DNA from: a virus
Taxonomy: Duplodnaviria > Caudoviricetes
IMG/VR virus record: IMGVR_UViG_3300023246_000127
Location: 1-37,476 of that record
Strand: one strand, 5' to 3'
DNA: 37,476 nucleotides
Part shown: piece by piece, positions 210 to 37,476 of the stretch
Layout: each line of letters begins with the position of its first letter
Position numbering within the stretch: position 1 is the first letter of the stretch
Program-made: the position numbers and the translations under genes
The notes under the pieces: generated by a model
The model's database searches: none
Told to the model about the DNA's origin: nothing
What the model saw: the letters and a program-made list of their open reading frames with translations, nothing else

Positions 210-326
210 TAATAGGTTATATATATAAGACGGTTCTATGAGTGACAAGTCAAAGCGTTTCATTCGTAAGATAGTTCATTATATTAAGATGCTTATATGG
301 CGTCTATTGGAGTGGATAGAATGGGA

Positions 327-14302: not shown

Positions 14303-14312
14303 GGAGAAAAGC

Positions 14313-14492
14313 ATGAAAATCACACAGAATGGCAAGGGAATCAGAATCACGAGAAGTAATGGCGCGGAGTTATGCCTTGAAGCAGATGAAGCGAAAGAGC
14401 TTAAAGTAGCGGTTGACAAGTTCTTTGAGGTAGAGAAGAAGAAAGAAGTTGTAATTAAGCCTAAAATAGATGACAAGACTAGTGACAAGTAG
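14313..14492 (+). CDS. 59-aa ORF between the two terminase halves
   Basis: AAGGAG RBS; MKITQNGKGIRITRSNGAELCLEADEAKELKVAVDKFFEVEKKKEVVIKPKIDDKTSDK*; its TAG overlaps the next GTG (TAGTG). Confidence 0.7.
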   Translation: MKITQNGKGIRITRSNGAELCLEADEAKELKVAVDKFFEVEKKKEVVIKPKIDDKTSDK

Positions 14493-16323: not shown

Positions 16324-16393
16324 AAGCTCATAGCAGAGGAAGCGGGAACGTGAAAGAACACCGCAATATACCTCTATTATGGGCTTTTTATTT
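16324..16393 (+). promoter_or_regulatory. Long interrupted stem-loop with U-rich tail just upstream of the portal RBS
   Basis: aagctcatag/ttatgggctt, agagg/cctct and gcgg/ccgc nested stems, then tttattt. Confidence 0.6.
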
Positions 16394-16402
16394 GAGGTAA
16401 AA

Positions 16403-20513: not shown

Positions 20514-20710
20514 AAGATTTAAGCAGAAGTCCCACGTCAAGAGGAGTTGGTGTAAAACTCGAAATAACTGGAGTTGAATCGGTTGAATCTACACGACAAT
20601 CGGATAAGGTGTTTGTACGGTGTAAACGGTGCGGAACTCCCGTAAACCAAGCCAAACATTCGAGGTGTCCGTATTGTGAAATAGAGAACTATTGGAAGGT
20701 AAACAACTAA
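20510..20710 (+). CDS. Small Zn-finger protein
   Basis: RCKRCG...CPYC; TTGA overlap. Confidence 0.65.
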   Translation: MKDLSRSPTSRGVGVKLEITGVESVESTRQSDKVFVRCKRCGTPVNQAKHSRCPYCEIENYWKVNN

Positions 20711-20979
20711 TGCTGATAAAAGCACATAACAGCAATTACGATAAACGTAGTGGAAGGGGTTTTAAGTGTAGTCAATGTGGAGCAATAAAAGATGATATAC
20801 AGTTCATTGAAAAGGTTTATGGTGGTATGTTCTCAAGGTGGCGATGTGCAAAATGCGGAAACACGTGGAGATATGACGAAACACCACCTATGAGTGCGGA
20901 AGAATTGAAGCACGATAAGAGAGCGAGAGAAATATCAGACCCCATGAAATCTTTTACAAGAGGACTGAAGAAAATATAG
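20710..20979 (+). CDS. Small Zn-ribbon protein
   Basis: CSQCG...CAKCG; TAATG coupling at 20710. Confidence 0.65.
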   Translation: MLIKAHNSNYDKRSGRGFKCSQCGAIKDDIQFIEKVYGGMFSRWRCAKCGNTWRYDETPPMSAEELKHDKRAREISDPMKSFTRGLKKI

Positions 20980-20988
20980 GAGGAAACA

Positions 20989-21729
20989 ATGAGATTTCAT
21001 TATGATTTAACACAAGCAGAGGAAATATATAGGGATGTACCAGTATATGATGCTGCTTCTATGGAAAATGGTGAGCTGGTAATGTTGGGAACGACTGCTG
21101 ATGACAGCAATGCTGATCAGGGTGTATCTTTTATAACGGCTTACACCGGTGGCGCTGCCGAAGCGGTTGATGCGTTAGGTACAATATGTGAAGATTTTTC
21201 AACAGCAGCCGATATAGACAATACGCCCGTACAGGACTGTAAATATTTAAAATGTATTGTGAATCCATTTGCTGTTTATTTAGCAGAATATTCGCAAGGC
21301 ACGTCAGATGACGTTGCGGTAACAACCGGAAGTACCGGAACCACGCTTACTATTGGTTCTTTAGAAGATAACTGGGATGCTGGTTGGGTATATTTAATAG
21401 CATCTTCGGGTTCTTTACGTCAGAATGTTGCTTGCGCTTCTGGATCTCTAACTATGGATAGTGCCCTAACGGTCACTACTTCAAGTCGGATAATCAAGAT
21501 ACGTCCAGTAAACTCAAGGTTAACGAACTTGAACACGGCGGCGACAATGCTAACAAGTGCAGCGGCAGTACCCGATGGAATATCTTTGCACGTTGTTAAA
21601 AACTGGATGACACACGACGGTCAGATACTTTTACCTTTAAGGTATGCGAATAGAGGTACGGACGGGCTAACGAATGTGAAGTTATATTCAGATTTAGCTA
21701 TGCTTGACCATGTTTACAACAATGCGTAA
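20989..21729 (+). CDS. Putative capsid decoration/cement protein
   Basis: Beta-rich, Ala/Thr/Gly-rich; directly before the capsid gene; AGGAGG RBS. Confidence 0.6.
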   Translation: MRFHYDLTQAEEIYRDVPVYDAASMENGELVMLGTTADDSNADQGVSFITAYTGGAAEAVDALGTICEDFSTAADIDNTPVQDCKYLKCIVNPFAVYLAEYSQGTSDDVAVTTGSTGTTLTIGSLEDNWDAGWVYLIASSGSLRQNVACASGSLTMDSALTVTTSSRIIKIRPVNSRLTNLNTAATMLTSAAAVPDGISLHVVKNWMTHDGQILLPLRYANRGTDGLTNVKLYSDLAMLDHVYNNA

Positions 21730-21768
21730 GTTAGTATTTCAAAATTAAAAGATTAATAGGAGGATATA

Positions 21769-22680
21769 ATGCATACTAGTGAGAAATGGCCAGATTTATT
21801 GGAGCCAAATGTAAAAGTGTTGTCCGATGAGGCAACGAGGTTTGACAGCAAGTCGTCTATGCTTTCAAAAATATTTGACATGAAAAAATCAGGTAAATCG
21901 TACGAGAAGTTTAGTTCTGCTTCAACGGTTGACGATTTTGAGTCATTTACAGGAACAGTTGGATATTCAGACACCTTTCAAGGATTCGATACACGTATTG
22001 AGTTCCCTGAATTTGTCAAAGGTATAAAGATAGAGCGTAAACTAAAAGACGATGACGAAACTAACATCATAGCAAGTCGTTCGGCTTCTATTGGTCATTC
22101 GTATGTTCGGTCGCGCGAAAAGGTTGGTGCGCAGGTATGGAATGAAGCGTTTACTACTGATTCAAACGATAATGTAACACATTCAGAAGGTGGCGAACTA
22201 TGCGCCTCTGACCATGCGTACACTAACGGTTCAACCGCAACACAGTCAAACGAAGGCACAACTGCTTTTAGTGCGACTTCTGTTGAAGCTACACGCCAGT
22301 TAATGTGTGCTTTTAGAGGAGATAACCAAGAGATTATATCAATCAATCCCGATACACTCCTTGTCCCTATTGGGCTTGAAGAAACTGGGTTTGAGATAAT
22401 CAATTCTAAAGGAAAAATCAATACCGACGCTAATAACGTCAACTTCCATGAAGGTAAGTACAAACTTATGGTATGGAAGAACTTTCTAACCGATGCTAAT
22501 AACTGGTTTATGATAGATTATAACCTCATGAAACAGTTTTTAAAATGGTATGATCGTATTCCTTTGGAAGTCAACCAAGACAGCGATTCCGATACACTTG
22601 TTGCTAAGTATATTGGTTATTGTCGTTTCTGGCGTTGGTGGATCAACTGGAGATTTTGTTTTGGTCATTTAGTAGGCTAA
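21769..22680 (+). CDS. Major capsid protein (Mu gpT-like HK97 fold)
   Basis: LLEP...IF, IERKLxDDD, G..LCASDH, INPDTLLVP..LE..G.EI, LTDANNWFMID, NWRF.FG; followed by a strong hairpin. Confidence 0.9.
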   Translation: MHTSEKWPDLLEPNVKVLSDEATRFDSKSSMLSKIFDMKKSGKSYEKFSSASTVDDFESFTGTVGYSDTFQGFDTRIEFPEFVKGIKIERKLKDDDETNIIASRSASIGHSYVRSREKVGAQVWNEAFTTDSNDNVTHSEGGELCASDHAYTNGSTATQSNEGTTAFSATSVEATRQLMCAFRGDNQEIISINPDTLLVPIGLEETGFEIINSKGKINTDANNVNFHEGKYKLMVWKNFLTDANNWFMIDYNLMKQFLKWYDRIPLEVNQDSDSDTLVAKYIGYCRFWRWWINWRFCFGHLVG

Positions 22681-22687
22681 TTTAAAA

Positions 22688-22721
22688 GGGGAGGGGTAGG
22701 GTATCCTATCTCTCCCTATTT
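22688..22721 (+). terminator. Hairpin after the capsid gene
   Basis: gggaggggtagg-gtat-cctatctctccc followed by tattt. Confidence 0.7.
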
Positions 22722-22740
22722 AACCTTAACAGGAGGAAAA

Positions 22741-23244: not shown

Positions 23245-23259
23245 AATGAGGAGGAAAAA

Positions 23260-24120
23260 ATGAAAAATATATTAATAAGCATAGCGTTAGTAGCTTTTGT
23301 ACTTGTTCCAAGCTATGCTGTTGGCGGTCACAATGGAACGTACGCCATAGAAGTAACTGGAACTCCAGACACGATAACGCCCGACGTAACAGTTGGTGCG
23401 GGGTGTGCTTATGTTGAAAACACACTTGAGGTAGATGGTGCGACTAGATTTGACGGTGCGGTGACGTTTAATGGTGCGATTGTGTCTTCTGATAGTTTCG
23501 TAAACATAGTGTACCCACTAACTGACCTAGCTGCTTCTGATGGAAACATCTACGTATCGTCAACTGGTGCGAGTGTTGGAAGTTTCGGTGTTGATAGATC
23601 GATGAATATAAGTTTACTACAAGCGGGTGGTACTACGTGGACACTAGCAAAGGCAGACTATACCGATGCTATTCATGCACGGAATATATCCGCCGTTATG
23701 AGGTCAACGTCTACTGCGTCAGATGCAATTTTGGAATCTAGTGCTACACTAACCATTTTAGGGTATACGGCACGTGGAGAACTAGAATCTGATACAATCT
23801 CGATGATAGACCATACGGTAAGGTACAGCAATAAGGCGTTTCTGTCTGTTGTTAGCTTTACTGTAAGCGATGCAACGGCCACGTGGAGTTCCGTAGGTTA
23901 TGCGGCACGTAAAGTTGGATTTGAGATAGGTACAAGCAATAAGATAGGACTACCTATTGATATCGACACTACTGCCGATATTTTCAAGGTTATTGTAGCC
24001 GGAGCTACTGAATCGTCTTCTGATTATACGGCAAATCACGTATATAATACGATAGACTTTTCAAGTGACGGCGATGCTTCAAGGGACTACGAGGTATACA
24101 TAAAAGTAAAGCAAAGATAA
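23260..24120 (+). CDS. Putative virion structural protein with signal peptide
   Basis: MKNILISIALVAFVLVPSYA|; beta-rich, ARNI...TILG...G...D motif; GAGGAGG RBS; followed by a strong hairpin. Confidence 0.75.
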   Translation: MKNILISIALVAFVLVPSYAVGGHNGTYAIEVTGTPDTITPDVTVGAGCAYVENTLEVDGATRFDGAVTFNGAIVSSDSFVNIVYPLTDLAASDGNIYVSSTGASVGSFGVDRSMNISLLQAGGTTWTLAKADYTDAIHARNISAVMRSTSTASDAILESSATLTILGYTARGELESDTISMIDHTVRYSNKAFLSVVSFTVSDATATWSSVGYAARKVGFEIGTSNKIGLPIDIDTTADIFKVIVAGATESSSDYTANHVYNTIDFSSDGDASRDYEVYIKVKQR

Positions 24121-24127
24121 ACGAAAC

Positions 24128-24161
24128 GGTGAGGAGTATCTATAAAAGGGTACTCTTCACC
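24128..24161 (+). terminator. 14-bp stem-loop (terminator or mRNA stabiliser)
   Basis: ggtgaggagtatct / gggtactcttcacc. Confidence 0.65.
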
Positions 24162-24188
24162 AATTTGTTGACAAGGGAGGTGTTTTAA

Positions 24189-24563
24189 GTGAACAGAAAT
24201 ATTATACATTCAGAATCATTACAAGATACCGACGGTACGAAATGGGAATCAAAGGCAATGACAACCTCTGCCGCAACGTATTATAGTGACAAAATACCGG
24301 TTAAGTTTAGTACAGGAAATTCTTCGTTACTTGTTAAGACTAGCGCAGGTTCTTTAGCTATTACAGTTGAGTTATCGTTAAACGGTGATGATTGGTACAC
24401 GCCATACGATACAGACGGAAACGACCTCGGTGCTTTAGTTTCGGCATTAACAGCAGATAGATGGATTGTTTATAACCCACAAATAACATTATACAAACGG
24501 TTCAAATTCGTTTTGACAGTTGCAAATTCAACCGTATCAGCTAGATATATTCAACAAGAATAA
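24189..24563 (+). CDS. Small beta-sandwich structural protein (no signal peptide)
   Basis: ITVELSLNGDDWY...YKRFKF pattern; GGGAGG RBS with GTG start. Confidence 0.65.
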   Translation: MNRNIIHSESLQDTDGTKWESKAMTTSAATYYSDKIPVKFSTGNSSLLVKTSAGSLAITVELSLNGDDWYTPYDTDGNDLGALVSALTADRWIVYNPQITLYKRFKFVLTVANSTVSARYIQQE

Positions 24564-24574
24564 AGGAGAGTGAA

Positions 24575-24976
24575 ATGAAGCGGTATTTTTTATTTACAAT
24601 GTTTATTTTTTTTGCGGTATCAGCACACGCAGGTATGTTTGGTGTTAAACTTCAAAAGATAAACAAAGGGCCAGATAGGAGAGACTTTAACCTAACAATA
24701 ACGTCAGGCACAGCAATCGGTGGTGTTGATCAAGGTTCTACAATTCTAAGTACAACCGAAGCATCTATTTGTAATGACGTAGACTTCATAGTAAGAACAA
24801 GCACGCTCTATACCTCATATTTTTCTAGTTTTTCAACTACTGGCTCGGACTGTCGTATGTGGGTTCCCGGTGAGGCATATAGCTTTGGAGGTAGAAACAA
24901 TAAACCAGTCTATGGTAAGACCGCAGATGAAACTTCTAACTCGGCAAGAATAGATGGTGCTATATTTAAAGACTAA
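24575..24976 (+). CDS. Putative virion protein with signal peptide
   Basis: MKRYFLFTMFIFFAVSAHA|; AAGGAG RBS. Confidence 0.7.
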   Translation: MKRYFLFTMFIFFAVSAHAGMFGVKLQKINKGPDRRDFNLTITSGTAIGGVDQGSTILSTTEASICNDVDFIVRTSTLYTSYFSSFSTTGSDCRMWVPGEAYSFGGRNNKPVYGKTADETSNSARIDGAIFKD

Positions 24977-24984
24977 GAGGTTAA

Positions 24985-26055
24985 ATGAAAAAACTATTTT
25001 TAGCCATATTATTACTTGGTATATCCATTCCTTGTTTTGGTGGAGAATTGACTCAATACATTGATACTGATGTTGTTGGTGGAACTGGTGATGGTTCTTC
25101 TTGGGTTAATGCCTACTCTGCAACTGGTTTGTGGGAAGCACAGAACTTAAACCTAACCGACAATGGTGGAGATTCTCTAACTGTAAATTGTAGAGGAATA
25201 TTAGCAGATACAACTGGATTTAATCTTGATGGGTGGACTTGCAATGCAACAAACTATCCTACTCTTGTTGGCGATTGGACACCACCTGCTTCTGGTGATA
25301 TGTATGATACAACTAAATTTAGACTTGAATTGGTTGGCGCACACAAACTAAAAGCATACAGGACAGTTAAGCTTGAGAACATACAAATTAAGTTTACTGC
25401 TAGTGGTAATGGTCAGAATGTGTGTACTCTTTGGAATCTTAATGCAGGTAAAATAGTTTTAGAAAACTGTATTTTAAAAGCCGTCCTTGGTGCGTACACT
25501 GAAATGAAGAGTCTTATGGCAAATAATAGTGGGACAGGAACCCCAACTTATTTTATAAACTGTTTATTCTATGATTGGACTGGTGCGTGGAGCAGACCGA
25601 TAACAACCGACATAGGTGGGAATACCGTAAACATATATAACTGTACATTTTATAATTGTGAAAGAATCGCTGAAAATAGAGGTGGTGGAACAATAATAGC
25701 AACAAACAATATTTTCCATACTGTAAACACAGTAGATATTTATCAAGGTGGAGGTATGGGAACTATCACGCTTTTAACAAACGACACATCCAACGGAGAT
25801 TATTTTGTTGATGCGAGTGGTAGTGACTTTCATGTAAATTCAGATACCGCAGTAGTTGTTGGTGCAGGTACAGATTTAGCGACTATATTTACAACCGATA
25901 TGGCAGGTGTTACTCGTAGTAGTCCATGGACTATTGGTGCTTTTGAATTCTTTGTTGCTACACCGACTCCGACACCATCTACATCGTCAAGCTCAAGACT
26001 AGAACAAAATAATCTCGAACTATTTTTTAAGAGAAGGGGTAAGAGGGTTAAATGA
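24985..26055 (+). CDS. Pectin-lyase-like beta-helix protein with signal peptide (tail spike/adhesin candidate)
   Basis: MKKLFLAILLLGISIPCFG|; YID...G.GDGSSWxNAY, NCLFY/NCTFYN/NNIF repeats, DFH...GAG...TDMAGxxR..PWxIGAFEF. Confidence 0.75.
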   Translation: MKKLFLAILLLGISIPCFGGELTQYIDTDVVGGTGDGSSWVNAYSATGLWEAQNLNLTDNGGDSLTVNCRGILADTTGFNLDGWTCNATNYPTLVGDWTPPASGDMYDTTKFRLELVGAHKLKAYRTVKLENIQIKFTASGNGQNVCTLWNLNAGKIVLENCILKAVLGAYTEMKSLMANNSGTGTPTYFINCLFYDWTGAWSRPITTDIGGNTVNIYNCTFYNCERIAENRGGGTIIATNNIFHTVNTVDIYQGGGMGTITLLTNDTSNGDYFVDASGSDFHVNSDTAVVVGAGTDLATIFTTDMAGVTRSSPWTIGAFEFFVATPTPTPSTSSSSRLEQNNLELFFKRRGKRVK

Positions 26056-26792
26056 AAAAACTGATAATAGCAATCTTGTTAGGAGTTAGTTTCTGTTCGG
26101 TATCTTATGCGTGGAATTTAGAACAACTTAGGGATCAGGCACGATTGACATTAAGGGACTCTGATTCAAGTAACCCACGATGGGAAGACTACCAGTACGA
26201 TATTAGGTTCGCTATGGCGGAAGAGGAGTTTTGCAGACGCACAAGAGCGGTTAAAACGCAGAACTATATAGTCACTATTGCCAGTCAAACCGAGTATTCG
26301 CTTCCTGATGGGTGGATAGGTACTGACAGGGTTTCAAGAGCAATAATACCGCTTATAACAGCTACTACGAGATACTTAGAGATAGACCGAGTTACTTTAA
26401 CGTGGCTAGACTCCGATAAGGGTAGACCGTTTTTTGAAGACTCATCACCCGACGTTCCTAACAGATTTTACATCAATCTAAACACACAGAAAATAGGCCT
26501 AGACCCACCTCCTAACGTAACCTATACCGGGACAAACCTCATAAAACATGAGTATACAATTATATCCTCTACCATGAGTGCGGATTCTGATGAACCGTTT
26601 GATAGTATAGGATACCTTTCTTCTTACCACAAGGCTTTAATACCTTACGTTATTTCAATGTGTGAGAAAGATCAAGGGAACGATAACGCCTCTGTGGGTT
26701 GGATGCAAGTCTTTGACGCTTATGTCGAAAGGGCTATATCTGAACTAAACGTAATGATTACTAACAAGAAAGCAAGTATGACTGCCAGATAA
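26052..26792 (+). CDS. Head-tail adaptor / tail tubular protein A-like, with signal peptide
   Basis: MKKLIIAILLGVSFCSVSYA| then LEQLRDQAR, AEEEFCRRT, QTEYSLPD, PNRFY, IGLDPPP, YHKALIPY. Confidence 0.75.
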   Translation: MKKLIIAILLGVSFCSVSYAWNLEQLRDQARLTLRDSDSSNPRWEDYQYDIRFAMAEEEFCRRTRAVKTQNYIVTIASQTEYSLPDGWIGTDRVSRAIIPLITATTRYLEIDRVTLTWLDSDKGRPFFEDSSPDVPNRFYINLNTQKIGLDPPPNVTYTGTNLIKHEYTIISSTMSADSDEPFDSIGYLSSYHKALIPYVISMCEKDQGNDNASVGWMQVFDAYVERAISELNVMITNKKASMTAR

Positions 26793-26800
26793 GGGGATAA

Positions 26801-29173
26801 ATGAGAAAAGCTATTGTTTTATTGTTGTCAACTATTTGTATTGCTTCGGTAACTTTTAGCGAAGAAACAACTAACGCAAAAGAGTTTCCCCACTATGGCC
26901 TACAAGGGTGGGTTACAGTTGTACGCCCTGATATGCTTTCTGACTTACTTTCCCCTGACGTATTAAATATAGAAACCGCGCGGTATACGGGACTGATTAC
27001 CCGAAGGTTAGGAAGTTCGCTGTACCTAACTACTCCCCTTGAAGGTGCTAAATTTATACGAAACTCTTACGTTTATAGGCAAGTAGACAATGACGAGTAC
27101 ATACTTTTACAATCTTCTACTTCGATGTTCTACTCAACCGGCGATGGAAACAGTACGAAAATACGAAGCGATCTAAATTCTACCTCGGTTGCGAATATTA
27201 CAACCGCAAGAGATACGGCGTACATAGTTGACGGTACTACGTGGGCGTGGAGTTTTAACGGCACGACTACGACGATACTTGACAATAAAGTACATGGTTC
27301 GGTTACTATATCGACAAACGTACCCTCATACCCCTATTTCGTTAAATGGTGGCACAACAGACTTTGGTATTTTAGGACAGATACATACCCTTCTACGGTG
27401 TGGTACAGCAACTACAATGACCCCGAAGTTATAGGGGATAACAGTACAAAGAATATCAATGTTTCAGATGGTGACTATATTACAGGCGCATTTTTATACC
27501 AAAATAGGTTGTTCGTAACGAAAAGGAACTCAACGTGGGAAATAACGGAGATAATAGACGATTCTTCCGATCCGTTCTTTATAATTAACAGCATTTCACA
27601 AGTTATAGGTTGTTTGTACCAAAACACTATGCGAGAGCATCAAGGGTTCCCCACGTGGTTAAGCCACAGAGGTGTTGAGATATACAACGGTCAATTTAAC
27701 CTAGCTAGTGAGCCAATAGACCCCTACGTTAAAGTATTAAACCAGTTGACCTCTGCTTCGAGATTAAGTCTAATCCAAGACACCGCTTCTGATTGGGGAA
27801 AGGGGTCAGGAATAAACATAGATACTACTACGACTTTAGGTAGTGTGGGTATTAAAGCAAAAGACTCTTCTAGAGACCAATCTCAACGAATGTATATACA
27901 CCAAGGATCATTGGAAAATGGGTATTCAAGAAGACAGTCTTTTAAACCGAGCTACACGGGCTATGTTGATAAGGTTAATATAAACATAAGAACATACACA
28001 GGGGGTGATGGTACATTTAATGTTTATATAGCAAATAATAATATGAATATTATGGAATCATACACCCTTACTGTGTCTTCTGTAATAGGAGATAATACAG
28101 ATATTAATTTTAATCATTTAAAATTAACCAAAGATTATACTTATTATATAGTGTTGTCTTCGGTTAGTGGTGCTGGCCAAGTACTTGTAGGTTATTATGA
28201 GGAGCGGTATAATCGTGGTAATACGGCATCAAAAATATATGATGGTGCATGGACAGAACACCCGGCGTATGACTTAACATTTGCAGTATATATGTCAACT
28301 ATGAATCCATTAAATGGGACATACACCTCACAAACCCTCAACGCAGGTACTTCATGGGGGAGTTGGGGTAACTTTAGCGCAGACGAAACTAAGCCATCGG
28401 GTGGGACGATTGTATATTACGGTCAAGGTGGCGGGTCAACAACTACCGCATCAGTTGCCGTTAAGACTGTTTTAACTAACGGTAGCCCGATAAACATATC
28501 GACTGGCCCGTACATAGTCGTCACTTCGTCATTAAGTCGTACTAGCTCTACCGTAAATCCTTTGGTAAACTCAATAGGTATTTCATATAACACAAGCTCT
28601 GCATTAAAGCAACCGTTTGCTATTGATTACAACGATAACTACATGATAGCCGTATCAACGAACACAAGTAACAACGATAATAATGTAGTTTTAGTGCTAC
28701 AAAGTAACGGCGAGTGGACACGGTTTAACGGTAGTGGTATGAATTGGGGGAGCACGTTTGTTTATAAAAATAACCTCTATTCTTGCGACTCGAAGGACAC
28801 GGGGAAAGTTTATCGCCAAGACGTTGAAAATTCGTACAGCGACGACGGAACGGGGTATGAGTCTTATTACTGTTCTAAAATATTCAATTTCGGAAGTATA
28901 AGGGAAACCACAATACTTGATATAGCACCTCTTTTTAATGATGCAGGGGACTGGAATGTAAATATAGACTATCGTATGCACGGTTCAGGGGGTTCGTGGA
29001 CGACTAAAACACTCAATTTATCAGACGACACTTTCGGTTTAATAACAAAAGTAATGCCTTTGCAGTTTCCTAAAAGCTACTTTTTCCAGTACAGAATAAG
29101 TGAAACCGATATTGACCAATCTTTTGAGTATAGGGGAATGACGATAAGATACTTAATAGAGTCTTTAAAATGA
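26801..29173 (+). CDS. Tail nozzle / tubular protein B-like (P22 gp10-like) with signal peptide and an inserted domain
   Basis: MRKAIVLLLSTICIASVTFS|; ITRRLGS, HNRLW, VWYSxxNDPE, DGDYITG, IGCL, SEPIDP, SKIFNFG beta-propeller-type motifs. Confidence 0.8.
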   Translation: MRKAIVLLLSTICIASVTFSEETTNAKEFPHYGLQGWVTVVRPDMLSDLLSPDVLNIETARYTGLITRRLGSSLYLTTPLEGAKFIRNSYVYRQVDNDEYILLQSSTSMFYSTGDGNSTKIRSDLNSTSVANITTARDTAYIVDGTTWAWSFNGTTTTILDNKVHGSVTISTNVPSYPYFVKWWHNRLWYFRTDTYPSTVWYSNYNDPEVIGDNSTKNINVSDGDYITGAFLYQNRLFVTKRNSTWEITEIIDDSSDPFFIINSISQVIGCLYQNTMREHQGFPTWLSHRGVEIYNGQFNLASEPIDPYVKVLNQLTSASRLSLIQDTASDWGKGSGINIDTTTTLGSVGIKAKDSSRDQSQRMYIHQGSLENGYSRRQSFKPSYTGYVDKVNINIRTYTGGDGTFNVYIANNNMNIMESYTLTVSSVIGDNTDINFNHLKLTKDYTYYIVLSSVSGAGQVLVGYYEERYNRGNTASKIYDGAWTEHPAYDLTFAVYMSTMNPLNGTYTSQTLNAGTSWGSWGNFSADETKPSGGTIVYYGQGGGSTTTASVAVKTVLTNGSPINISTGPYIVVTSSLSRTSSTVNPLVNSIGISYNTSSALKQPFAIDYNDNYMIAVSTNTSNNDNNVVLVLQSNGEWTRFNGSGMNWGSTFVYKNNLYSCDSKDTGKVYRQDVENSYSDDGTGYESYYCSKIFNFGSIRETTILDIAPLFNDAGDWNVNIDYRMHGSGGSWTTKTLNLSDDTFGLITKVMPLQFPKSYFFQYRISETDIDQSFEYRGMTIRYLIESLK

Positions 29174-30060
29174 GGAAACTCTTAATATTAGTTATTATCT
29201 CAATGTTTTCAATACCGTTGTTTGCAGAAACCGCACCTTACACGTTTACTCAAAAGGAGTGGCGGAATATTGATCTAAGTTATTTAAACTCGACAATCTT
29301 CTACATTCTAAACAAGAAACAAAATATAGACTTTAAGCAAGTTTCATCTGTTCCAAGTGCAACGAGATTATACAATAAACAGTTAATTCTTTACAATTCA
29401 GGAGCATCTTATAGGTTGTACTCAAAGATAAACGACAACTTGAAGTATATAACATTTAATATCGAAGACATAGCAAACACGTGGAGTGGTGAGAACACGT
29501 TTAGTAATACCGTTACCGTTACGACTATTACAGCTACGACATTAAATGTATCTGGTGTAGTTAATTTTTTACCAGCAGGGACTATAACAATGTATGGTGG
29601 TTCTACTGCACCGACGGGGTGGTTTGTTTGCGACGGTTCAACTGTTTCAAGAACAACATATGCAACTTTATACGCAATTATAGGTGAAACCTATGGTGCG
29701 GGTGATAGTTCTACGAATTTCAGTCTACCTGATTTTCGTGGAGTATTTGCGGTTGGTTCTGGGACAACAACACGTGTATCAGGCGTAGATGCAAGTGGAA
29801 GCCAATATGCGAGTACGTTAGGTGATTACGAACAAGACCATTTTCAAGGGCATAGGCATTTAATTAGAGATAGTAATGGAAGTCAATATAGTTCCGGGCT
29901 TATTCAGTCGGGAAGTGATGCATCTGTTCTATTATATCCTTCGGGTGTTACTACGGGATATGCAGCCGAACCGGTTGACGATGGAACTCACGGAACACCA
30001 AGGACAGGGCACGCAACAGAACCGCAGTCTTTAAGCGTTAATTATATTATAAGATATTAA
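29170..30060 (+). CDS. Tail collar-domain fibre protein with signal peptide
   Basis: MRKLLILVIISMFSIPLFA|; PAGTITMYGGSTAPTGWFVCDGSTVSRTTYATLYAIIG.TYGAGD..TNF.LPDFRG; FQGHRH; VNYIIRY. Confidence 0.9.
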   Translation: MRKLLILVIISMFSIPLFAETAPYTFTQKEWRNIDLSYLNSTIFYILNKKQNIDFKQVSSVPSATRLYNKQLILYNSGASYRLYSKINDNLKYITFNIEDIANTWSGENTFSNTVTVTTITATTLNVSGVVNFLPAGTITMYGGSTAPTGWFVCDGSTVSRTTYATLYAIIGETYGAGDSSTNFSLPDFRGVFAVGSGTTTRVSGVDASGSQYASTLGDYEQDHFQGHRHLIRDSNGSQYSSGLIQSGSDASVLLYPSGVTTGYAAEPVDDGTHGTPRTGHATEPQSLSVNYIIRY

Positions 30061-30071
30061 TAGGAGGATTT

Positions 30072-31616
30072 ATGAATACAAATATGATAAGATTTATGAA
30101 TACAAACATTAGTTTAATAATAAGGGATGGTAATGCTCTTCTTGATTTGTTGAAAAGTAACCCAACTGAATTTAATAAGTTGCGTACTGAAACACACAAT
30201 AGGGCTAACTCCACAAAAGATGCGGGAGATTGGCAAGATGCGGGATATTTAAGGTACATACAAGAGGCGTACGATAACGACCTTCCAATGGTAACTCGTG
30301 CCAAATTCGACAGTAATGTAAATATAAAAGAAGAAGGTAGTTACGGTGACTTTTTCTCTGGTGTTGTAGCTAAAAAGGAAAAACTAGAAAGTGATACCAA
30401 CTCTCAATTAAACCAAGTAAATGTTTTTATCGCACAGAAAGACTACGCTTCGGCTCAAGCTATATTAGATAATATAAAGGTAGATAACCCCAGTTATGAT
30501 ACTAGTGAGTATCAAGGTAGAGTAGACACAGGGAAAGGCGAAGTCGTAACACCTGAAGGAGAATTACAAGGTCAGTTAGATAAGTCTTTAGAACATGGAT
30601 TAATTACTCAAGAGGTTTACGATAAGGCGAAAAAGTATCTTGATTCTGGGTTGACCGACCAAGCAAGTGAGTATTTTAATGCCGAGGTAAACATTGACAG
30701 AACCGAGGACATACCTACTTATGACTATAGCAAAGACCCGGGAAAGGAAACAATCGACCAGTTAAAAGCTGGGTATCAAGAAACAGCAGCCCAAGAGTTA
30801 GGCGATTTTGTCGAACCCGAAATGACCGATAAGTACGAAGCACCGACTTTGACACCTGAAATGGTTCAGAATTGGGATTTAACCGTTCAAGACTGGGATA
30901 AGGTAGCCGACACTAAGGAAGAGGAAAGACTACTAAGGACTCTTGACGCTCAAGATCCATACGGTGCGGGTTCAGGAGATAGGGCGACCAAGTTAAGCGC
31001 ATTGATAGCCGACAGGGCAGAAGCGCGGAAAGGAAGGTCTTTTACTTTGGCTCAAGACGAGTTATCAGCCAAGACAGATACCGCTCAAGTAGAATACCAA
31101 CAGAAACTAACCGAATGGGAAAAACAGTACGGAACGGCGTGGTCACAGTACAACTACAAACAACAGCAAATTGAAAACTCAAAGTTAAAGTTACAGGAAA
31201 TAGCTGAATTTGAGAGTAACGCTTTTAGGTTTACTAACGCACAAGAACGTGAGGCTGCGTGGGCTTCGCTTGAAAGGGCGTGGACACAGAGAGATCAGTC
31301 AATGTCAGATAAACAAGAACTTGAAATGCAAGGTAGAAATATAGCGGCAGGTACTTCTTCACAGATTTTAGGAAACATACAATCTACAAGGGAAGCAGAT
31401 ACCTCATTTTATCAGAACAAGGAATTAATGAGAATACAGAACGCCAACGAAAGAGAGGTCGCTGGTATGTACGCAGACGCTAATAAGAAGAGTGCGTTTG
31501 ATTATGTCGCACCAGTTCTTTCTACGGTAGCGAGTGGCTATTTTCAAGGATTTGGATATGGTAAAGGTAGCCCACTACTTTCAAGTAAATATGGCGCAAC
31601 AGATAAAACAAAATAA
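30072..31616 (+). CDS. Putative ejection (internal virion) protein
   Basis: Helical, Gln/Glu-rich, amphipathic Gly-rich C-terminus; position after the tail genes; AGGAGG RBS. Confidence 0.6.
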   Translation: MNTNMIRFMNTNISLIIRDGNALLDLLKSNPTEFNKLRTETHNRANSTKDAGDWQDAGYLRYIQEAYDNDLPMVTRAKFDSNVNIKEEGSYGDFFSGVVAKKEKLESDTNSQLNQVNVFIAQKDYASAQAILDNIKVDNPSYDTSEYQGRVDTGKGEVVTPEGELQGQLDKSLEHGLITQEVYDKAKKYLDSGLTDQASEYFNAEVNIDRTEDIPTYDYSKDPGKETIDQLKAGYQETAAQELGDFVEPEMTDKYEAPTLTPEMVQNWDLTVQDWDKVADTKEEERLLRTLDAQDPYGAGSGDRATKLSALIADRAEARKGRSFTLAQDELSAKTDTAQVEYQQKLTEWEKQYGTAWSQYNYKQQQIENSKLKLQEIAEFESNAFRFTNAQEREAAWASLERAWTQRDQSMSDKQELEMQGRNIAAGTSSQILGNIQSTREADTSFYQNKELMRIQNANEREVAGMYADANKKSAFDYVAPVLSTVASGYFQGFGYGKGSPLLSSKYGATDKTK

Positions 31617-31627
31617 GGAGAATTATC

Positions 31628-32206
31628 ATGGGAAGCGGATACATTGAAGCGGCGAAGTATAAAGCTGAACAGGACAATAGAAACCCTTTAGCAGAGGGTT
31701 TGAGTAACATAGCCGAGAGTGCGGCGAGTGGTTACTTTAAAGGTAAGAATACTGCTATTTCCGAAGATAAAGAATTTAAAAGAGACCTTTTTAAAGAGTA
31801 CATTAAAAACGGTGTTCTAACGAGCAAGTCAAGTGGTCAACCTCTTAATATCGCACAGATTTTACACACATACAAAGAGTTTTACGCTACTGGTAAAATA
31901 CCCGACAACGTCGTATACACGTCAAGAAAATCAATACCAGAGACACCAGAGCAAAAGAGTGAACGTGGATTGAAGGATTATAAGGCAAAGAGGGGAGCTG
32001 ACACTGAACTTGGTCTTGACCCATACGGTAGATCGAAAGCAACGGCGTTAGGTAAAAAAGATGCGAAAGGTACATATGCAGACCTTTTTGATGAGACCGA
32101 AGATACTGCGGTTACTGGAAAACCCAAAGTAGGAGATATTGTAGATGGCTATAAGTTTTTAGGTGGCGACCCATCTTCTCAAAGTAGTTGGAAGAAAGTT
32201 AAATAA
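31628..32206 (+). CDS. Putative ejection protein
   Basis: GL..IA...ASGY..G N-region; C-terminal PKVGDIVDGYKFLGGDP....W motif. Confidence 0.6.
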   Translation: MGSGYIEAAKYKAEQDNRNPLAEGLSNIAESAASGYFKGKNTAISEDKEFKRDLFKEYIKNGVLTSKSSGQPLNIAQILHTYKEFYATGKIPDNVVYTSRKSIPETPEQKSERGLKDYKAKRGADTELGLDPYGRSKATALGKKDAKGTYADLFDETEDTAVTGKPKVGDIVDGYKFLGGDPSSQSSWKKVK

Positions 32207-32218
32207 AGGATATTAATA

Positions 32219-35200
32219 ATGCCTAAACCGTGGGAACTTTATACACCACAAGAAACATCTACACCACCGTGGGAAAAGTTTAGTGAAGAAAAAACTAAAC
32301 CGTGGGATAGCTTTAAAGAATCTTTTGGCTCTGCCAAAAAGACTTTAGGCAGTATGATAGGCAAGGTGAGAAAACCTATTGACTTACTTGCTGATACGAG
32401 TACAGAACTAGCCACTACTGGTGGTCTTGATTTTTCCAACCAACAACCCGCAGACTTACAAAACCAACCCTCTTTAATTCCGTTTAAAGAACAAGGGCAA
32501 ATAACACCAGAAGAACAAAAAATACAATCCGAAGTGAACCTCGATGTAGACCTTTTCCAATTAGCCGATAATATAGCTACCGTGGGTTTTGATAGTAAAG
32601 ACGAGGCGATGAAGGTAAAGAAACGTCAAGACTTCATTATGTCACGTGCGCCGTTGATAGCTTCGGGAATGGCAAGTCCTATTGCCGTTATGGGGTTTGA
32701 AATATTTAACCAGTTAAAAGGGTTATCGGTTTCAAGCAATACGGGACAGAAATACGATCCGTTACAGACCAAGCAGTTGACCGATTTACTACCAGACGAC
32801 ACACCTCAACCGCTAAGACTTGGCCTTTCAGTAGGCGAAATGGTGGGCGACGTAGCTCTTTTAGGTACTTTACTTAATATGGCAAATAAGGGCATTTTAG
32901 ACTCTACCTTAAAAGAAGTAGAAAGTAAGATGACTAATCGGGGATACTCAAAAGAAGACGTTAAATCCGTCTCTGAAGTGCTTAAAAACGTGGTTAAAGG
33001 CAGTACGGAGAAGAACATAAAGGCATCTTTTGGCGTTGAGAAATGGGAACCTATGGTACAAGTCAAGCCTAGCCCTAAGTTACCCGGTGTAAAAGGCGTC
33101 GTAAAAGGCGGTGTAAAAGGTACGGAAATAGTAAAACCTAAATCAATCCCCGAAATAACCCCCAAGATACCCAAAAGCGCGGTGATGTTGCCTAAATCAG
33201 GTAAAGAAATTTACCAACCAACCCCCACAACCCCACCAGACGCACAGAAATTAGGCGTAGTCAGCGAAGTCCCACCAAAGGTAGAAATACCCCAAGGCGA
33301 GGTTAAGCCCGTAGAAACGCCTAAATCAAGCCCTTTAGTTGAAGAAGCTAGGAAGTATAAGTCTGCTGAGGAGTGGGTTTCAACATATAGAGGTAGTGCT
33401 ACTCAATATAGTGGATATAATCCTAATATACGAAAATTTGGAACAACAGAGGGAAGTGAAAGAATTAGCGATTTAGGTGTTGACCCAGAATTAGATGTTA
33501 CTATTTATCGTGGTGTATCTGATGGTAATAAAAAACTCATTAATGCTAAGATTGTAGATGGTGATTTTGTAACAACAGATAGTATGTCTGCCGAATCTTA
33601 TGCGGGTAAAAATAATGTTGTTAGTATGAAAGTTAAAGCTAAAGATTTAATACACGATTTTCCTGATGAATTTGATTCTAATAAACCTTTTGGGGTAGGT
33701 GCAGAATTTATTTATTCTGACAACAAAAATAAACTCATAAAATACACAGACAAGCAACTAACCGAGATATGGAACAAAGCCAATAAGGTAGATGAGACTT
33801 CTGTAAAGCAAACCATAGAAAAGTCAGGTGGTCAGTTTATAGGCATACAAGAAGGTTTTGATGATGTAAAGTCAATGGCTATGTTCAATGACCCTAAGAC
33901 TGGAAGTACCTTGTCATTGCCTATTGACGGGGTTACTAGTGAGGCGGTGAGTGAAAAACTAGGTAAGACCGAGAAGGTTTTTAAGGAAAAGAAGGTGTTT
34001 GGTAAGGCAGATAAGAAGTTTACCGAGGAATCAGGTGTGGTTGCTAATCCTTTAGAGGTAACCCAAAAGACAAAAGAGTATGTGAACAAAAACTGGACGA
34101 CTTTAAGAGAAAAGATAGAGGACGATTGGATAAGGGTTAAAAAGCTTACCCAAAAAGAAGGTGTTAAGCTAACCGAAGCTAATAATCCTTACGAGGCAGA
34201 GACTAGGTATTGGGGTCGTGTCGGCACTCGCATGGAAGATACTTTAGACCAAATTAGCGATATTGACAAGGAAATAGCAAAAGTTGAAAAGAAGTATAAA
34301 TCCCCTGAAATAAACAAGGATATTGACAGGTATTTAATAGCTAAACACGCACCCGAACGGAACGTCGTACATGGCGAAGAATCGGCGGGAATAACTAGCG
34401 AACAAGCAAGTAAAAATATTAAAGAGATAGAAGGGAAGTCTTATGGTAAAGAAGTAAAGCAAATAGCTAAAGATATAAAAAAGTTAAACGAAAAAACTCT
34501 CGATGTCTTACTTGAAGGCGAAGTAATATCTCAGGGCGATTACGATAAATTAAGAAAGTTGTACCCTAATCATATACCATTAAACAGAGTAATGAGTGAA
34601 TCCGAGGACTTTGTACAGATATTGACTTCTAGGGGTTTCAATGTCCAAGGTACGGGAATTAAGAGAGCTTTTGGGAGTAAAAAGGAAGTAGCTGATATTT
34701 TGGGTAATGTAACGGCTAATTTACGATCGGCTATTGCAAGGTCAGAAAAGAATATTGTTGATAACCACACTTTAAATTTTGCTAGAGATAACGATTATTT
34801 TGACGGACTTTTTGAAGAAATAAAACCCAAAACGATAGGTAAGACTTTTGAAGGTGGGTTTATACAAGAACACATAAATGACCCCTCTGTTTTACCGGTA
34901 AGAGAAAAAGGCAAACAAGTTTATTTGAAGATAAACGACCCACAGATAGCAGTTGCGTTTCGTGGTGTAAACAGAATTAAGGTAGACGATTTAACGAGAA
35001 TGGTGGCTGCGTTTACAAGGTTCTATGCCGGTCTTATGACTAGGTTTAACCCCGAATTTGCCGTACCGAACAAAGTAAGAGATTTACAGGAAACAATGGT
35101 GTATATGGCCAGTAAGAAAGATATAGGTTTTTCGGGTGCGGCGAAGACTGCTATAAAAGACCCCGTAAGTATTAAGGCAGTAGTTGACTATATGGGTGGA

Positions 35201-36733
35201 AAGGATACGGAAGGTGCGAGACTTTACCAGCAAATGAAAGAAGACGGCGGAACGACTGGTGGGCTTGGACTTTCTACTAAAAAACAAACAGAAATAGACA
35301 TAGATAAAATACGGAGAATTAATAGAAATAAACCCAGAAAAGTCGCTGAAATTGCCTTGCGGGTAGTTGATAACTGGAACGCCATATTTGAGGATTCTAC
35401 AAGACTTTCGGTTTATAGGCAGTCGTTATCTCAAGGACTTAGTAGAAAAAAGTCGGCAGTATACGCGAAAGAAGCTTCAATTAATTTTAACAAAATGGGC
35501 GCTTTGTCTCCCATGACTAACGGTATATGGATGTTCTCTAACGCTTCAGTACAGGGTTCGGCTAAGATGTTACGGGCAATGAGAGACCCTAAGGTTGCGG
35601 GAATGGTTTTAGCTACTATCGGTGGTTCGATATACGCTATCAACGAATATAACGATAAGATAGACCCCGAATGGAGAAGTAAAGTAAGCGAGTGGGATAG
35701 ACTTAACGGAATAACTATTATGCTACCTTCTAATAAGGGTGTGCGTTATATTACAATCCCTGTATCGTGGGGACTGAAACCAATTAAAGTTGGTATGGAT
35801 TATTTCATAGATTACACACAAGGCCATGAAACAGATATAAAAACTGCCATGAGTAAGGTTTTGGCGGCAATATGGGAAGGATATAACCCCGTAGGCGGTA
35901 CGGACATAGTTTCTGCGGTAACACCCACAATCCTTGACCTACGCATAGACATATCAAGAAACCGATCGTGGACTGGTGGAAAGATTAGACCTGACTGGAA
36001 CCAATCGGCTCCCGATTCTATAAAGTATTTCGATAGCTTAAAAGATAAATTAATGGGAAAAAAGTTTATTGGTTGGACGCGCAAACTCGGAGAAAAGGGA
36101 ATAGAAATATCCCCAGCGGATATGAACTACGCATTTCAACAGCTTGTAGGTGGTACGGGCAGATTTACACAAAAAGTGTTTGAAACTATAAGCGGAGTGA
36201 AAAAGGGTAAGATAGAAGCAAAAGAAATACCGTTTATAAGTAGATTTTACCGAGACATACCCGAAGACAGAATACGTGGCGAGTCAAAAGAGTTTGAGAG
36301 TTTAAAAGATGCGTTAAAGAAACAAGATAAAGAACGGTTTTATTTTAACCAAGAAGCGGAGTTAGTTTACGAAGGAATGAAACAGATACCCGCAAAAGAA
36401 ATGAATGAAAATTACAACAAAATGGAGGAAAACAATCCGCGCCTTGCGAAAAAGATAAAACATTTAAGAGAAAACGAAAAGTATAAATTGACCTATATCG
36501 AAAGGTTGACTAAGCAGTTAGGTGATACAAATGGAGAGCGGTTTAAATATATATGGTCTAAAGTAAGTGAACTTAAAACAGGGAAAGAGAAAAATACATA
36601 TTTAAAAGACTTGATAAAGAAAAAAATAATATCAGATAACGTATGGGAAGAGTTAGTGTCAATGAGCAAGAAGAAAGGTAAAAAGACTCTTGGCTCAAAA
36701 ATAGGGAAGGACTTATTAAATGAAAATAAATAA
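32219..36733 (+). CDS. Large polyvalent/ejection protein with ADP-ribosyltransferase-like cassette and LPD38-like domain
   Basis: N-terminal PW[ED] repeats; VTIYRG...GDFVT...A.SYA...EFIY; T.FNPEF...N.VRD, FEDSTRL..Y, NFNK.G, FSNASVQG, IP..WG, NP.GG, N.SWTG..I, IPFISRF. Confidence 0.8.
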   Translation: MPKPWELYTPQETSTPPWEKFSEEKTKPWDSFKESFGSAKKTLGSMIGKVRKPIDLLADTSTELATTGGLDFSNQQPADLQNQPSLIPFKEQGQITPEEQKIQSEVNLDVDLFQLADNIATVGFDSKDEAMKVKKRQDFIMSRAPLIASGMASPIAVMGFEIFNQLKGLSVSSNTGQKYDPLQTKQLTDLLPDDTPQPLRLGLSVGEMVGDVALLGTLLNMANKGILDSTLKEVESKMTNRGYSKEDVKSVSEVLKNVVKGSTEKNIKASFGVEKWEPMVQVKPSPKLPGVKGVVKGGVKGTEIVKPKSIPEITPKIPKSAVMLPKSGKEIYQPTPTTPPDAQKLGVVSEVPPKVEIPQGEVKPVETPKSSPLVEEARKYKSAEEWVSTYRGSATQYSGYNPNIRKFGTTEGSERISDLGVDPELDVTIYRGVSDGNKKLINAKIVDGDFVTTDSMSAESYAGKNNVVSMKVKAKDLIHDFPDEFDSNKPFGVGAEFIYSDNKNKLIKYTDKQLTEIWNKANKVDETSVKQTIEKSGGQFIGIQEGFDDVKSMAMFNDPKTGSTLSLPIDGVTSEAVSEKLGKTEKVFKEKKVFGKADKKFTEESGVVANPLEVTQKTKEYVNKNWTTLREKIEDDWIRVKKLTQKEGVKLTEANNPYEAETRYWGRVGTRMEDTLDQISDIDKEIAKVEKKYKSPEINKDIDRYLIAKHAPERNVVHGEESAGITSEQASKNIKEIEGKSYGKEVKQIAKDIKKLNEKTLDVLLEGEVISQGDYDKLRKLYPNHIPLNRVMSESEDFVQILTSRGFNVQGTGIKRAFGSKKEVADILGNVTANLRSAIARSEKNIVDNHTLNFARDNDYFDGLFEEIKPKTIGKTFEGGFIQEHINDPSVLPVREKGKQVYLKINDPQIAVAFRGVNRIKVDDLTRMVAAFTRFYAGLMTRFNPEFAVPNKVRDLQETMVYMASKKDIGFSGAAKTAIKDPVSIKAVVDYMGGKDTEGARLYQQMKEDGGTTGGLGLSTKKQTEIDIDKIRRINRNKPRKVAEIALRVVDNWNAIFEDSTRLSVYRQSLSQGLSRKKSAVYAKEASINFNKMGALSPMTNGIWMFSNASVQGSAKMLRAMRDPKVAGMVLATIGGSIYAINEYNDKIDPEWRSKVSEWDRLNGITIMLPSNKGVRYITIPVSWGLKPIKVGMDYFIDYTQGHETDIKTAMSKVLAAIWEGYNPVGGTDIVSAVTPTILDLRIDISRNRSWTGGKIRPDWNQSAPDSIKYFDSLKDKLMGKKFIGWTRKLGEKGIEISPADMNYAFQQLVGGTGRFTQKVFETISGVKKGKIEAKEIPFISRFYRDIPEDRIRGESKEFESLKDALKKQDKERFYFNQEAELVYEGMKQIPAKEMNENYNKMEENNPRLAKKIKHLRENEKYKLTYIERLTKQLGDTNGERFKYIWSKVSELKTGKEKNTYLKDLIKKKIISDNVWEELVSMSKKKGKKTLGSKIGKDLLNENK

Positions 36734-36734
36734 T

Positions 36735-36869
36735 ATGAGAACAATCTCAGCTTGTATTTTATCGGTTTATTACACTCACTTAAATGCCGACGTTAGCACA
36801 TTTATTTTAGTCGTCAACCTTTGGGTTATAGCACTTTTAATTAAAGAAAAACTAGACAGGAGGAGGTAA
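36735..36869 (+). CDS. Possible small hydrophobic protein (44 aa)
   Basis: MRTISACILSVYYTHLNADVSTFILVVNLWVIALLIKEKLDRRR; no clear RBS. Confidence 0.35.
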   Translation: MRTISACILSVYYTHLNADVSTFILVVNLWVIALLIKEKLDRRR

Positions 36870-36871
36870 CT

Positions 36872-37102
36872 GTGGGAAACAAGACATTTTGGCAAGACGG
36901 CAGACCCCAATCATCAAGAATAGATCCCTCAAACTCTAACGCAATATATGAGGGTTGGTGTCAAATTGGCAAGTACGCTGATACCGATAAAGGCGTGTGG
37001 AGAATATCAAAAACCGATTCAAACGGTGATAGAACGTGAGCGGAAGGAACTTATAAAGATACAAAAATATGGAACAATAGAGCTACTTATGCTTATTCGT
37101 AA
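36872..37102 (+). pseudogene. 76-codon small virion-type gene interrupted by an in-frame TGA (pseudogene, read-through or sequence error)
   Basis: AGGAGG RBS, GTG start; ...YEGW...VWRISK...DRT*AEGTYKDTKIWNNRATYAYS; TGA at 37037-37039. Confidence 0.6.
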
Positions 37103-37476
37103 ACTACTTCTTATATTATTCTTGATCGTACCTTCATATTGTTACGCCGAATTACCGACGGTTGTGTTCGGAAGCACGACATATAGATTTAATCCATTTA
37201 TGAACCCAGCTAAAAGACAACAATGGGACGACGTATCTGCGGAGAATCTAGGTGGCTACACTTCGGGTCAATTTCTATTGTTAGGGGGAAGTCAAACCGT
37301 TTCAGGTCAACCCGTATTTAACAATATAATTCTAGGCACAGCTACCTATGTTCTTGACTCTGCTCTTTTAAATGGTTACACTTCGTCTGAAATAGTAGCA
37401 ATATCTACAAATCTTGTACCTTCTCCTGATTTATCAGCTTATGCAATTAAATTAGATGTATCAAATTCAACAGATG
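37089..37476 (+). CDS. 5' part of a signal-peptide-bearing protein (tail fibre candidate), truncated by the window end
   Basis: MLIRKLLLILFLIVPSYCYA|ELPTVVFGSTTYRFNPF...; frame open to the window end. Confidence 0.75.
   Translation, partial: MLIRKLLLILFLIVPSYCYAELPTVVFGSTTYRFNPFMNPAKRQQWDDVSAENLGGYTSGQFLLLGGSQTVSGQPVFNNIILGTATYVLDSALLNGYTSSEIVAISTNLVPSPDLSAYAIKLDVSNSTD

Follow-up and report, generated by a model that had tools for sequence, protein, structure and literature searches.

Signal-peptide-like leaders across the tail genes of a podophage suggest export of its tail proteins

The window analyzed here comprises all 37,476 nucleotides of the virus record IMGVR_UViG_3300023246_000127 (Caudoviricetes), and its recognized genes all lie on the + strand. 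The tail block, from position 23,260 to the end, contains seven open reading frames (ORFs), named below by their start positions, whose products begin with leaders resembling signal peptides of the Sec pathway. These encode a tail-region accessory protein of 286 amino acids without a family match (23260..24120; predicted leader 23260-23319, cut after SYA); a small protein of 133 amino acids (24575..24976; leader 24575-24631, AHA); a spike or appendage candidate of 356 amino acids (24985..26055; leader 24985-25041, CFG); an SU10-type head-tail adaptor (26052..26792; leader 26052-26111, cut between SYA and W); a predicted tail nozzle of the β-propeller type, with the P22 gp10/T7 gp12/SU10 gp17 fold (26801..29173; leader 26801-26860, cut between TFS and E); a collar-domain short fibre (29170..30060; leader 29170-29226, LFA; PF07484 at E 1.4e-23 and PHROG tail-fibre families); and a fibre-type protein that runs off the window (37089..37476; leader 37089-37148, CYA), which is 343 amino acids long in the related loci L004 and L005.

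In all seven (7/7), a basic n-region is followed by an uncharged hydrophobic h-region and a cut site with small residues. None (0/7) has a lipobox with cysteine at +1, so the leaders are not of the lipoprotein type processed by signal peptidase II. An earlier note on this DNA had described these leaders, their cut sites, and the lack of cysteine at +1, and all were verified in the ORFs. The leader is the one hydrophobic 19-mer in each protein (37089 was checked as far as the window reaches). A purine run resembling a Shine-Dalgarno (SD) sequence precedes five of the seven starts (23260, 24575, 24985, 26052, and 26801), the starts of 26052 and 29170 overlap the upstream stop codon as ATGA, and that of 37089 falls inside the final codons of the small gene upstream of it, as this gene is read in a relative of 97% identity. 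Within codons 2-45, none of the seven has an in-frame ATG, GTG, or TTG with an SD motif; in-frame starts that lack such a motif do occur, among them an ATG in 24575 (codon 21) and a TTG in 24985 (codon 22). The SD-like motifs and stop overlaps favor translation from the leader.

Leaders were scored by a rule of our own rather than by SignalP, written after the leaders had been seen, which combines a hydrophobic 8-mer, a basic n-region, and small residues at -1 and -3. Among 46 curated + strand genes, this heuristic flagged eight, namely the seven tail genes and the early gene 7867; of 1995 internal windows taken from the mature tail proteins as a control, none (0) was flagged. The flagged genes are 7/8 of those in the tail region and 1/38 of the others (Fisher p = 1.2e-6, for a grouping made post hoc). 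The head, terminase, and ejection-position genes have no leader by the heuristic; position and composition are the basis for assigning the scaffold and decoration genes and two of the three ejection genes. The division between leader-bearing tail and leaderless head claimed in the earlier note holds for the seven genes and for the head, terminase, and ejection genes; exceptions to it are 24189 and 36872, which are leaderless, and 7867, which carries a leader outside the tail block.

The adaptor 26052 matches PF24175 (E 7.9e-18; 66 bits, cut-off 27) through residues 22-228, which align with the profile from position 2 to 181, and its match to phrog_399 also begins at residue 22. A sequence search of solved structures with the adaptor returned weak matches only (26fb_T, E 4.6e-4; 8jov, E 0.011). 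Homologues were collected with a three-sequence profile that included the leader, which matched 274 cluster representatives with E no higher than 0.001; the best 150 of these 274 were used. The heuristic flagged 130 of 152 adaptor homologues. For alignment, a spurious match of 2372 amino acids, one fragment, and one duplicate were dropped and 10 adaptors from related loci were added. Of the resulting 159 adaptors, 139 have an N-terminal extension of 15-43 amino acids, 12 lack one, and 8 are truncated or odd. The extensions have a hydrophobic core in 139/139 and a lipobox in 0/139, with A, G, S, or C at -1 in 123/139 and A, V, S, G, L, C, T, or I at -3 in 131/139. The start methionine of the 12 leaderless adaptors falls on the +1 position of the predicted cut, and 14 of the 139 leader-bearing adaptors have methionine at +1. 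The proposal that the mature adaptor begins where adaptors normally begin is supported by the PF24175 match from residue 22 and by the 12 leaderless forms, and no in-frame start lies near the cut (none in codons 10-31), as the earlier note had also said.

Mean mature identity among the 139 leader-bearing adaptors is 29%. In the two closest adaptors, leader identity is 7/20 and 3/20, as against 69% and 65% in the mature part, and in the closest distinct nozzle it is 5/19 as against 60%; in these alignments the predicted leaders of both proteins diverge faster than the mature parts. On an unrooted FastTree tree of 152 mature adaptors, the leader label needs three changes, and eight leaderless adaptors, that of locus L009 among them, form one group (support 99) within leader-bearing ones (enclosing support 90). 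The placement of this leaderless group fits secondary loss but, the tree being unrooted, a single origin may also hold.

The nozzle 26801 has no match in Pfam or PHROG, and a sequence search of solved structures with it found nothing. It was modeled with AlphaFold2 from a 10-sequence alignment (mean pLDDT 64; a single-sequence model reached pLDDT 34). Podophage tail chains rank first in a Foldseek search with this model. In VIA, the best match is Pa223 (9nwi_Y; Z 26.0, rmsd 3.5, 433 aligned), followed by P22 gp10 (Z 24.5), the crAss001 muzzle (Z 23.8), and SU10 (Z 22.8); the top 16 rows are phage tail chains only (Z 20.6-26.0), and unrelated propellers appear from Z 20.5 down. On the predicted model, 26801 folds as a podophage-type nozzle. 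Together with the PF24175 match, this upholds the adaptor and nozzle assignments of the earlier note. The solved nozzles align from their own residue 2 to model residue 35-37, and all 13 nozzle homologues open with a leader (13/13 by eye; one is 97% identical to the query). The adaptor-family and nozzle-chain matches begin after the leader, so the leaders are additions to normal adaptor and nozzle folds, and by these computations they look like real signals for Sec and signal peptidase I (SPase I).

The nozzle also carries an inserted module at about residues 305-600, which is similar to parts of cellular proteins that have FlgD-Ig or F5/8 domains; one such protein, with F5/8, is leader-bearing. 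The likeness is strongest in Elusimicrobiota, and it also occurs in two control phyla. The flanking module of the insert is common to the cellular proteins L072, L073, and L074 and occurs in tandem copies in L076, and in L073 the insert-like module wraps an F5/8 carbohydrate-binding-type domain. The insert was considered as a phylum marker and rejected, the nozzle profile matching 16/401 genomes in the phylum of genome G001, 3/151 in that of G403, 0/151 in that of G406, and 9/151 in that of G405.

Related loci were found through motifs in the mature region of the nozzle, so they were not selected for leaders; a 60-row adaptor alignment offered no stretch suited to locus scans. After duplicates were merged and L023 and L030 (truncated) and L028 (without an adaptor) were left out, 11 distinct loci show both starts (L009, L011, L012, L013, L015, L016, L022, L024, L025, L029, and L037). 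The nozzle has a leader in 11/11 and the adaptor in 10/11, the adaptor start in L024 being mis-called and its leader read by eye. Leaders co-occur across the tail module in these homologous phages, a check that the earlier note had suggested. Other tail genes follow the same pattern. Homologues of 23260 (in L011, L012, L024, and L015) and of 37089 (in L013, L024, and L029) are leader-bearing, as is the L011 homologue of 24985, a gene with a weak, below-cut-off match to Chondroitinase B. The 24575 family recurs near the adaptor in relatives, its homologues in L011, L016, and L024 all having leaders. Where the set of ejection-position genes is seen, in five loci (L011, L013, L016, L024, and L029), none of these genes is flagged. 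These computations support a predicted head/tail split in leaders that recurs across a deep group of relatives.

The predicted boundary of this split moves, lying between portal and adaptor in this genome and between adaptor and nozzle in L009, which pairs a leaderless adaptor with a leader-bearing nozzle. At L029:6160-7568 there are tandem adaptor-family genes, the first leaderless and the second leader-bearing. PF24175 matches in 301 genomes of the phylum of G001 are leaderless in 5/5 cases. One of these, an integrated prophage at about 59000-94200 of G240:C127 with an integrase and a repressor-like gene, has an SU10-type tail that is wholly leaderless, including the nozzle, and serves as a natural control. 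The phylum of G405 likewise has three leaderless nozzles of prophage type. Directly before its adaptor, L009 encodes a GDP-mannose dehydratase, a methyltransferase, and four glycosyltransferases (L009:30-6007).

The remaining genes of the tail block are leaderless. A protein of 124 amino acids (24189..24563) has no family and no homologue in the loci studied. Behind the collar fibre lie two ejection-position proteins whose roles are assigned from position (30072..31616 and 31628..32206) and a 1504-amino acid ejection-type protein with LPD38, identified by family scans (32219..36733). The small gene before the last fibre (36872..37102) has an early TGA at 37037-37039 in this lineage (L004, L005, and L021) and stays open as far as 37102 in the 97% relative (L008); leaderless genes that resemble it by eye precede leader-bearing fibres in L011, L013, and L024. 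Recoding of TGA was ruled out, as 15 of 45 genes terminate in TGA and the sole in-gene TGA is TGG in the 97% relative.

The window and L004 join as a circle, a near-complete podophage genome of ~39.3 kb: L004 runs on from the last base of the window through 1849 extra bases and back to window base 1. Because near-identical contigs (97-100%) span the late region, this region is not an assembly artifact. The gene content includes a two-ORF terminase, an SU10-type portal, a major capsid protein, the SU10-type adaptor, the collar fibre, the LPD38 protein, GroES, and recombination genes. No integrase was found among the genes scanned, and no tape measure, sheath, or tube gene was matched among the late genes scanned, several of which are without any family. 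The adaptor and nozzle have no tblastn match among 50,697 GenBank phages; the terminase's C-terminal portion has a weak match there (best 28% identity).

The large terminase (13415..15187; phrog_2, phrog_24361) is encoded by ORFs 13415-14302 and 14492-15187 and is likewise split in L011 but a single ORF in L012. A GroES homologue is encoded at 15675-15968, in the interval between terminase and portal. The portal (16379..18535; PF23899, E 4.3e-18) is followed, within 19608..22680, by the scaffold-like 19608 and decoration-like 20989, both named by position, and by the major capsid protein 21769 (phrog_371, PF10124); all of these are leaderless. Scaffold or capsid N-termini in three relatives (L012:4919, L013:1209, and L016:2304) finish with a motif like F-F-A or H-F-A and may resemble the extensions that Prp protease removes from head proteins of Firmicutes phages. 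Early gene 7867 (7867..8178) has, by the heuristic, a leader of the same style as the tail genes (VSYA before the cut), with a CxxC motif after it; a weak leader-bearing homologue, L015_9340, adjoins a lysin-like gene. Two early-region repeat proteins, at 2697-3671 and 7063-7779, carry a ~22-residue leucine-rich repeat and a pentapeptide repeat.

A putative lysis cassette lies across the junction of the circle. The 1.85 kb outside the window hold, in order, the rest of 37089, a leader-bearing 95-amino acid gene, a 78-amino acid holin-like gene (with a single hydrophobic segment and no family match, as seen in L004/L005), a leader-bearing 165-amino acid gene with a second hydrophobic segment, and the leader-bearing start of a small outer-membrane-barrel-like gene, whose C-terminal part is at 3..209 of the window. 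The cassette ends with a leaderless DUF5675 protein (297..722; PF18925, E 2.2e-32), a candidate endolysin; DUF5675 is classed as a C82-like candidate lysin in a preprint (bioRxiv 10.64898/2026.04.11.717860). Lysin candidates in relatives (L009, L016, L025, and L029) are also leaderless, with matches to Amidase_2, NlpC/P60, and PHROG endolysin, and small membrane genes lie near such candidates. L004 and L005 have different barrel genes, and the L005 counterpart has PagL and Phage_OMP as Atlas look-alikes, which we take as a lead only. At L005:11577-12454, a stretch that ends at window position 209, a protein with a leader, a coiled-coil-like part, and a hydrophobic segment lies beside the small barrel-like protein, between the holin-like gene and the lysin candidate; this pair, which includes no lipoprotein, is a possible non-lipoprotein analogue of a spanin, and a similar pair follows the NlpC/P60 gene in L029 (18366-19865). 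Ordinary lysis is suggested by the holin-like genes together with the leaderless lysin candidates, and lysins of this kind would imply a holin that makes large holes.

The leader-bearing barrel-like gene suggests, as a lead only, a host with two membranes, and the lysin candidates suggest that it has peptidoglycan. The sole named host link is L037: this contig of 5 kb, assigned by binning to an Elusimicrobia genome, has a leader-bearing adaptor and nozzle after an N gap. A first scan of GTDB for loci found nothing, and a GTDB motif scan gave seven loci with one true nozzle. A spacer-type search with positions 17477-37476 of the window against 401 genomes returned short imperfect matches only, several of them being gene starts such as AGGAG..ATGAAAAAA.

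Cleavage by signal peptidase I takes place at the outer side of the inner membrane. Since a conserved -1/-3 site sits just before the ancestral start and SPase I cuts outside, export with cleavage is the best reading of the leaders, and we consider export of the tail proteins by Sec likely from the sequence patterns. It is rather probable that a widespread group of uncultured tailed phages builds its virions in two compartments, with heads in the cytoplasm and the whole tail, from the adaptor outward, reaching its place via Sec, the membrane gate being opened at lysis or crossed by docking. The specific route that we prefer, to which we give an even chance, consists of Sec export, cleavage by signal peptidase, storage in the periplasm, and joining to filled heads once the inner membrane has been breached.

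By this route, the leaders of the adaptor, nozzle, and fibre proteins would be read by Sec and cut by SPase I, and the exported subunits would be held in the periplasm. Storage as subunits is the safer assumption than a pre-built periplasmic tail, because T7 gp11 is monomeric without the portal ring (PMC6702177). Procapsids and ejection proteins would meanwhile be built and filled in the cytoplasm, the closed portal holding the DNA for a while, as is proposed for T7 before tail addition (PMC6702177). A large-hole holin, needed by the leaderless lysin, would then mix both pools inside a still-intact outer membrane; canonical holins open holes of micron scale for endolysins of the cytoplasm, the outer membrane being the last to fall (PMC6116005). 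The adaptor, nozzle, and fibres would be added in the usual order, so that the inner membrane would be the gate keeping particles unfinished until lysis.

Several points weigh against this route. Export and joining at lysis are read from sequence and from a predicted fold, and the roles of holin and lysin, and with them the timing, are assigned by likeness. The two tail-region genes 24189 and 36872 have no leader, and in relatives the heuristic flagged three head-region ORFs, two decoration-like in L016 and one mis-started capsid gene in L029, which we counted as errors of the heuristic. The adaptor profile, by including the leader, was biased toward leader-bearing matches. The portal of SU10 is reported to have one structure before and after release (PMC9509320), and the valve proposed for T7 may accordingly not hold for a portal of the SU10 type. 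For the host there is a single candidate link, one binned contig. Nor did a selective reason for export emerge from the glycosylation-motif or cysteine-pair comparisons. N-x-S/T motifs show no excess over expectation in this genome (34 observed, 33.7 expected), in 139 adaptors (243, 259 expected), or in 21 nozzles (238, 234 expected). The D-S/T-hydrophobic motif is likewise at expectation in this genome (13, 12.7 expected); it is mildly raised in leader-bearing adaptors (171, 145 expected) and more so in leaderless ones (23, 12.8 expected). The tested motifs thus show no excess over composition that would make periplasmic glycosylation a rationale, and no export-specific disulfide was found, the adaptor cysteine pair occurring in 9/11 leaderless as against 67/137 leader-bearing adaptors. 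The charge of the early mature region is flat beyond the first three residues (those at p 0.019, one of 7 lengths, uncorrected).

The earlier note had proposed that the tail is secreted into the periplasm or tethered to the inner membrane and that heads join it at or across the membrane, a non-canonical route of egress. Of this, export stands as a probable reading, given Sec-like leaders and a recurrent split; joining at the membrane and unusual egress fare less well than joining at lysis. Were a tail ring on the periplasmic face to dock the portal across the intact inner membrane, and particles to be completed or let out with no lysis of the ordinary kind, unplugged heads would be spared a long wait, and the shift of the boundary to adaptor and nozzle in L009 and the tandem leaderless and leader-bearing adaptors in L029 would suit such docking. 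We nevertheless consider it unlikely, as the seven proteins (37089 to the window end) have no membrane-spanning segment besides the leader and the genes scanned include no candidate translocation machine. The lysis-like cassette also speaks against it, and joining at lysis is favored because leaderless lysin candidates and holin-like genes are present in this genome and its relatives.

An unusual host cell plan, with a large periplasm or an internal membrane, or a periplasmic step of folding or modification that uses none of the known motifs, would make joining incidental to lysis. A trait that spans a group as deep as these adaptors is expected if tied to a host lineage, and the sugar-synthesis and glycosyltransferase cluster of L009 sits just before its adaptor; against this, the tested glycosylation motifs and cysteine pairs gave no export-specific signal and the prophages of one phylum with a host lead have leaderless adaptors (5/5), which leaves this explanation improbable. 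A doubtful alternative is that the leaders are uncleaved tethers that keep the tail proteins on the cytoplasmic side for assembly at the inner membrane surface. Their hydrophobic cores would bind membrane, head and tail would share a compartment, and T4 prohead assembly is membrane-associated, but 123 and 131 of the 139 diverged leaders retain the pattern at -1 and -3, respectively, right in front of the ancestral start, SPase I is outside, and a basic n-region with a short h-region favors an N-in, C-out topology.

It is quite improbable that the exported block is not, or not only, the virion tail, serving instead as a surface or periplasmic decoy or exclusion device, or that leaderless isoforms make the real tail. 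SD-less in-frame starts near the cut in 24575 and 24985 and methionine at +1 in 14/139 adaptors would allow for this; the genome, however, has one recognizable adaptor and one nozzle, with no start codon in codons 10-31 of the adaptor or 10-44 of the nozzle. Chance or mis-called starts, a concern with a heuristic written by us after the leaders were seen, are very improbable given near-identical sequence in several independent contigs, coupled starts, clean control windows, and leaders conserved in >130 homologues.

The taught view has tailed phages assembling both head and tail in the cytoplasm; here the portal-sealing ring itself appears routed out of it. If the preferred route of storage and joining at lysis is true, filled heads would retain DNA without an adaptor until lysis, lysis would be an assembly step, and Sec and signal peptidase would count among the host factors of a tailed virion. 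Ready comparisons are offered by natural variants whose boundary lies between portal and adaptor, lies between adaptor and nozzle, or is absent.

We found no description of tail proteins with signal peptides in tailed phages in PMC open-access and bioRxiv full text, as judged by listings and the starts of abstracts, the search covering neither subscription journals nor supplements. The parts are known; within this search, the route is not. Virion proteins with leaders cleaved by SPase I are familiar from M13 (procoat pVIII and pIII); the M13 coat proteins, however, stay in the inner membrane and are extruded without lysis by a phage-coded machine, and M13 has no HK97-type head, portal, or terminase. 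Late assembly without cytoplasm is known from P22 tailspike addition, T4 and lambda head-tail joining in extracts, and the extracellular tail growth of the archaeal virus ATV, but there the parts are of cytoplasmic make or are carried within the particle, and none is known to go via Sec. Lys44 of fOg44 and the SAR endolysins are late tailed-phage proteins that use a host signal peptide, wait outside the cytoplasm, and are activated via the holin (PMC6116005). These are enzymes, whereas in this phage it is the structural core that bears the leaders and the lysin candidate has none. Closest in architecture are SU10 (portal gp6, adaptor gp11, and nozzle gp17; PMC9509320), T7 (gp8/gp11/gp12; PMC6702177), P22 (gp1/gp4/gp10), and Pa223, with which this phage shares, in the customary gene order, the portal family PF23899, the adaptor family PF24175, the nozzle fold (Z 22-26), a collar fibre, and genes at the ejection position. 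The term "signal peptide" has 0 occurrences in the SU10 main text (PMC9509320). The solved nozzles of these phages begin at model residue 35-37, the leader being extra here, and in this genome the adaptor itself is leader-bearing, with the predicted cut placed by the homologue survey exactly at the ancestral start.

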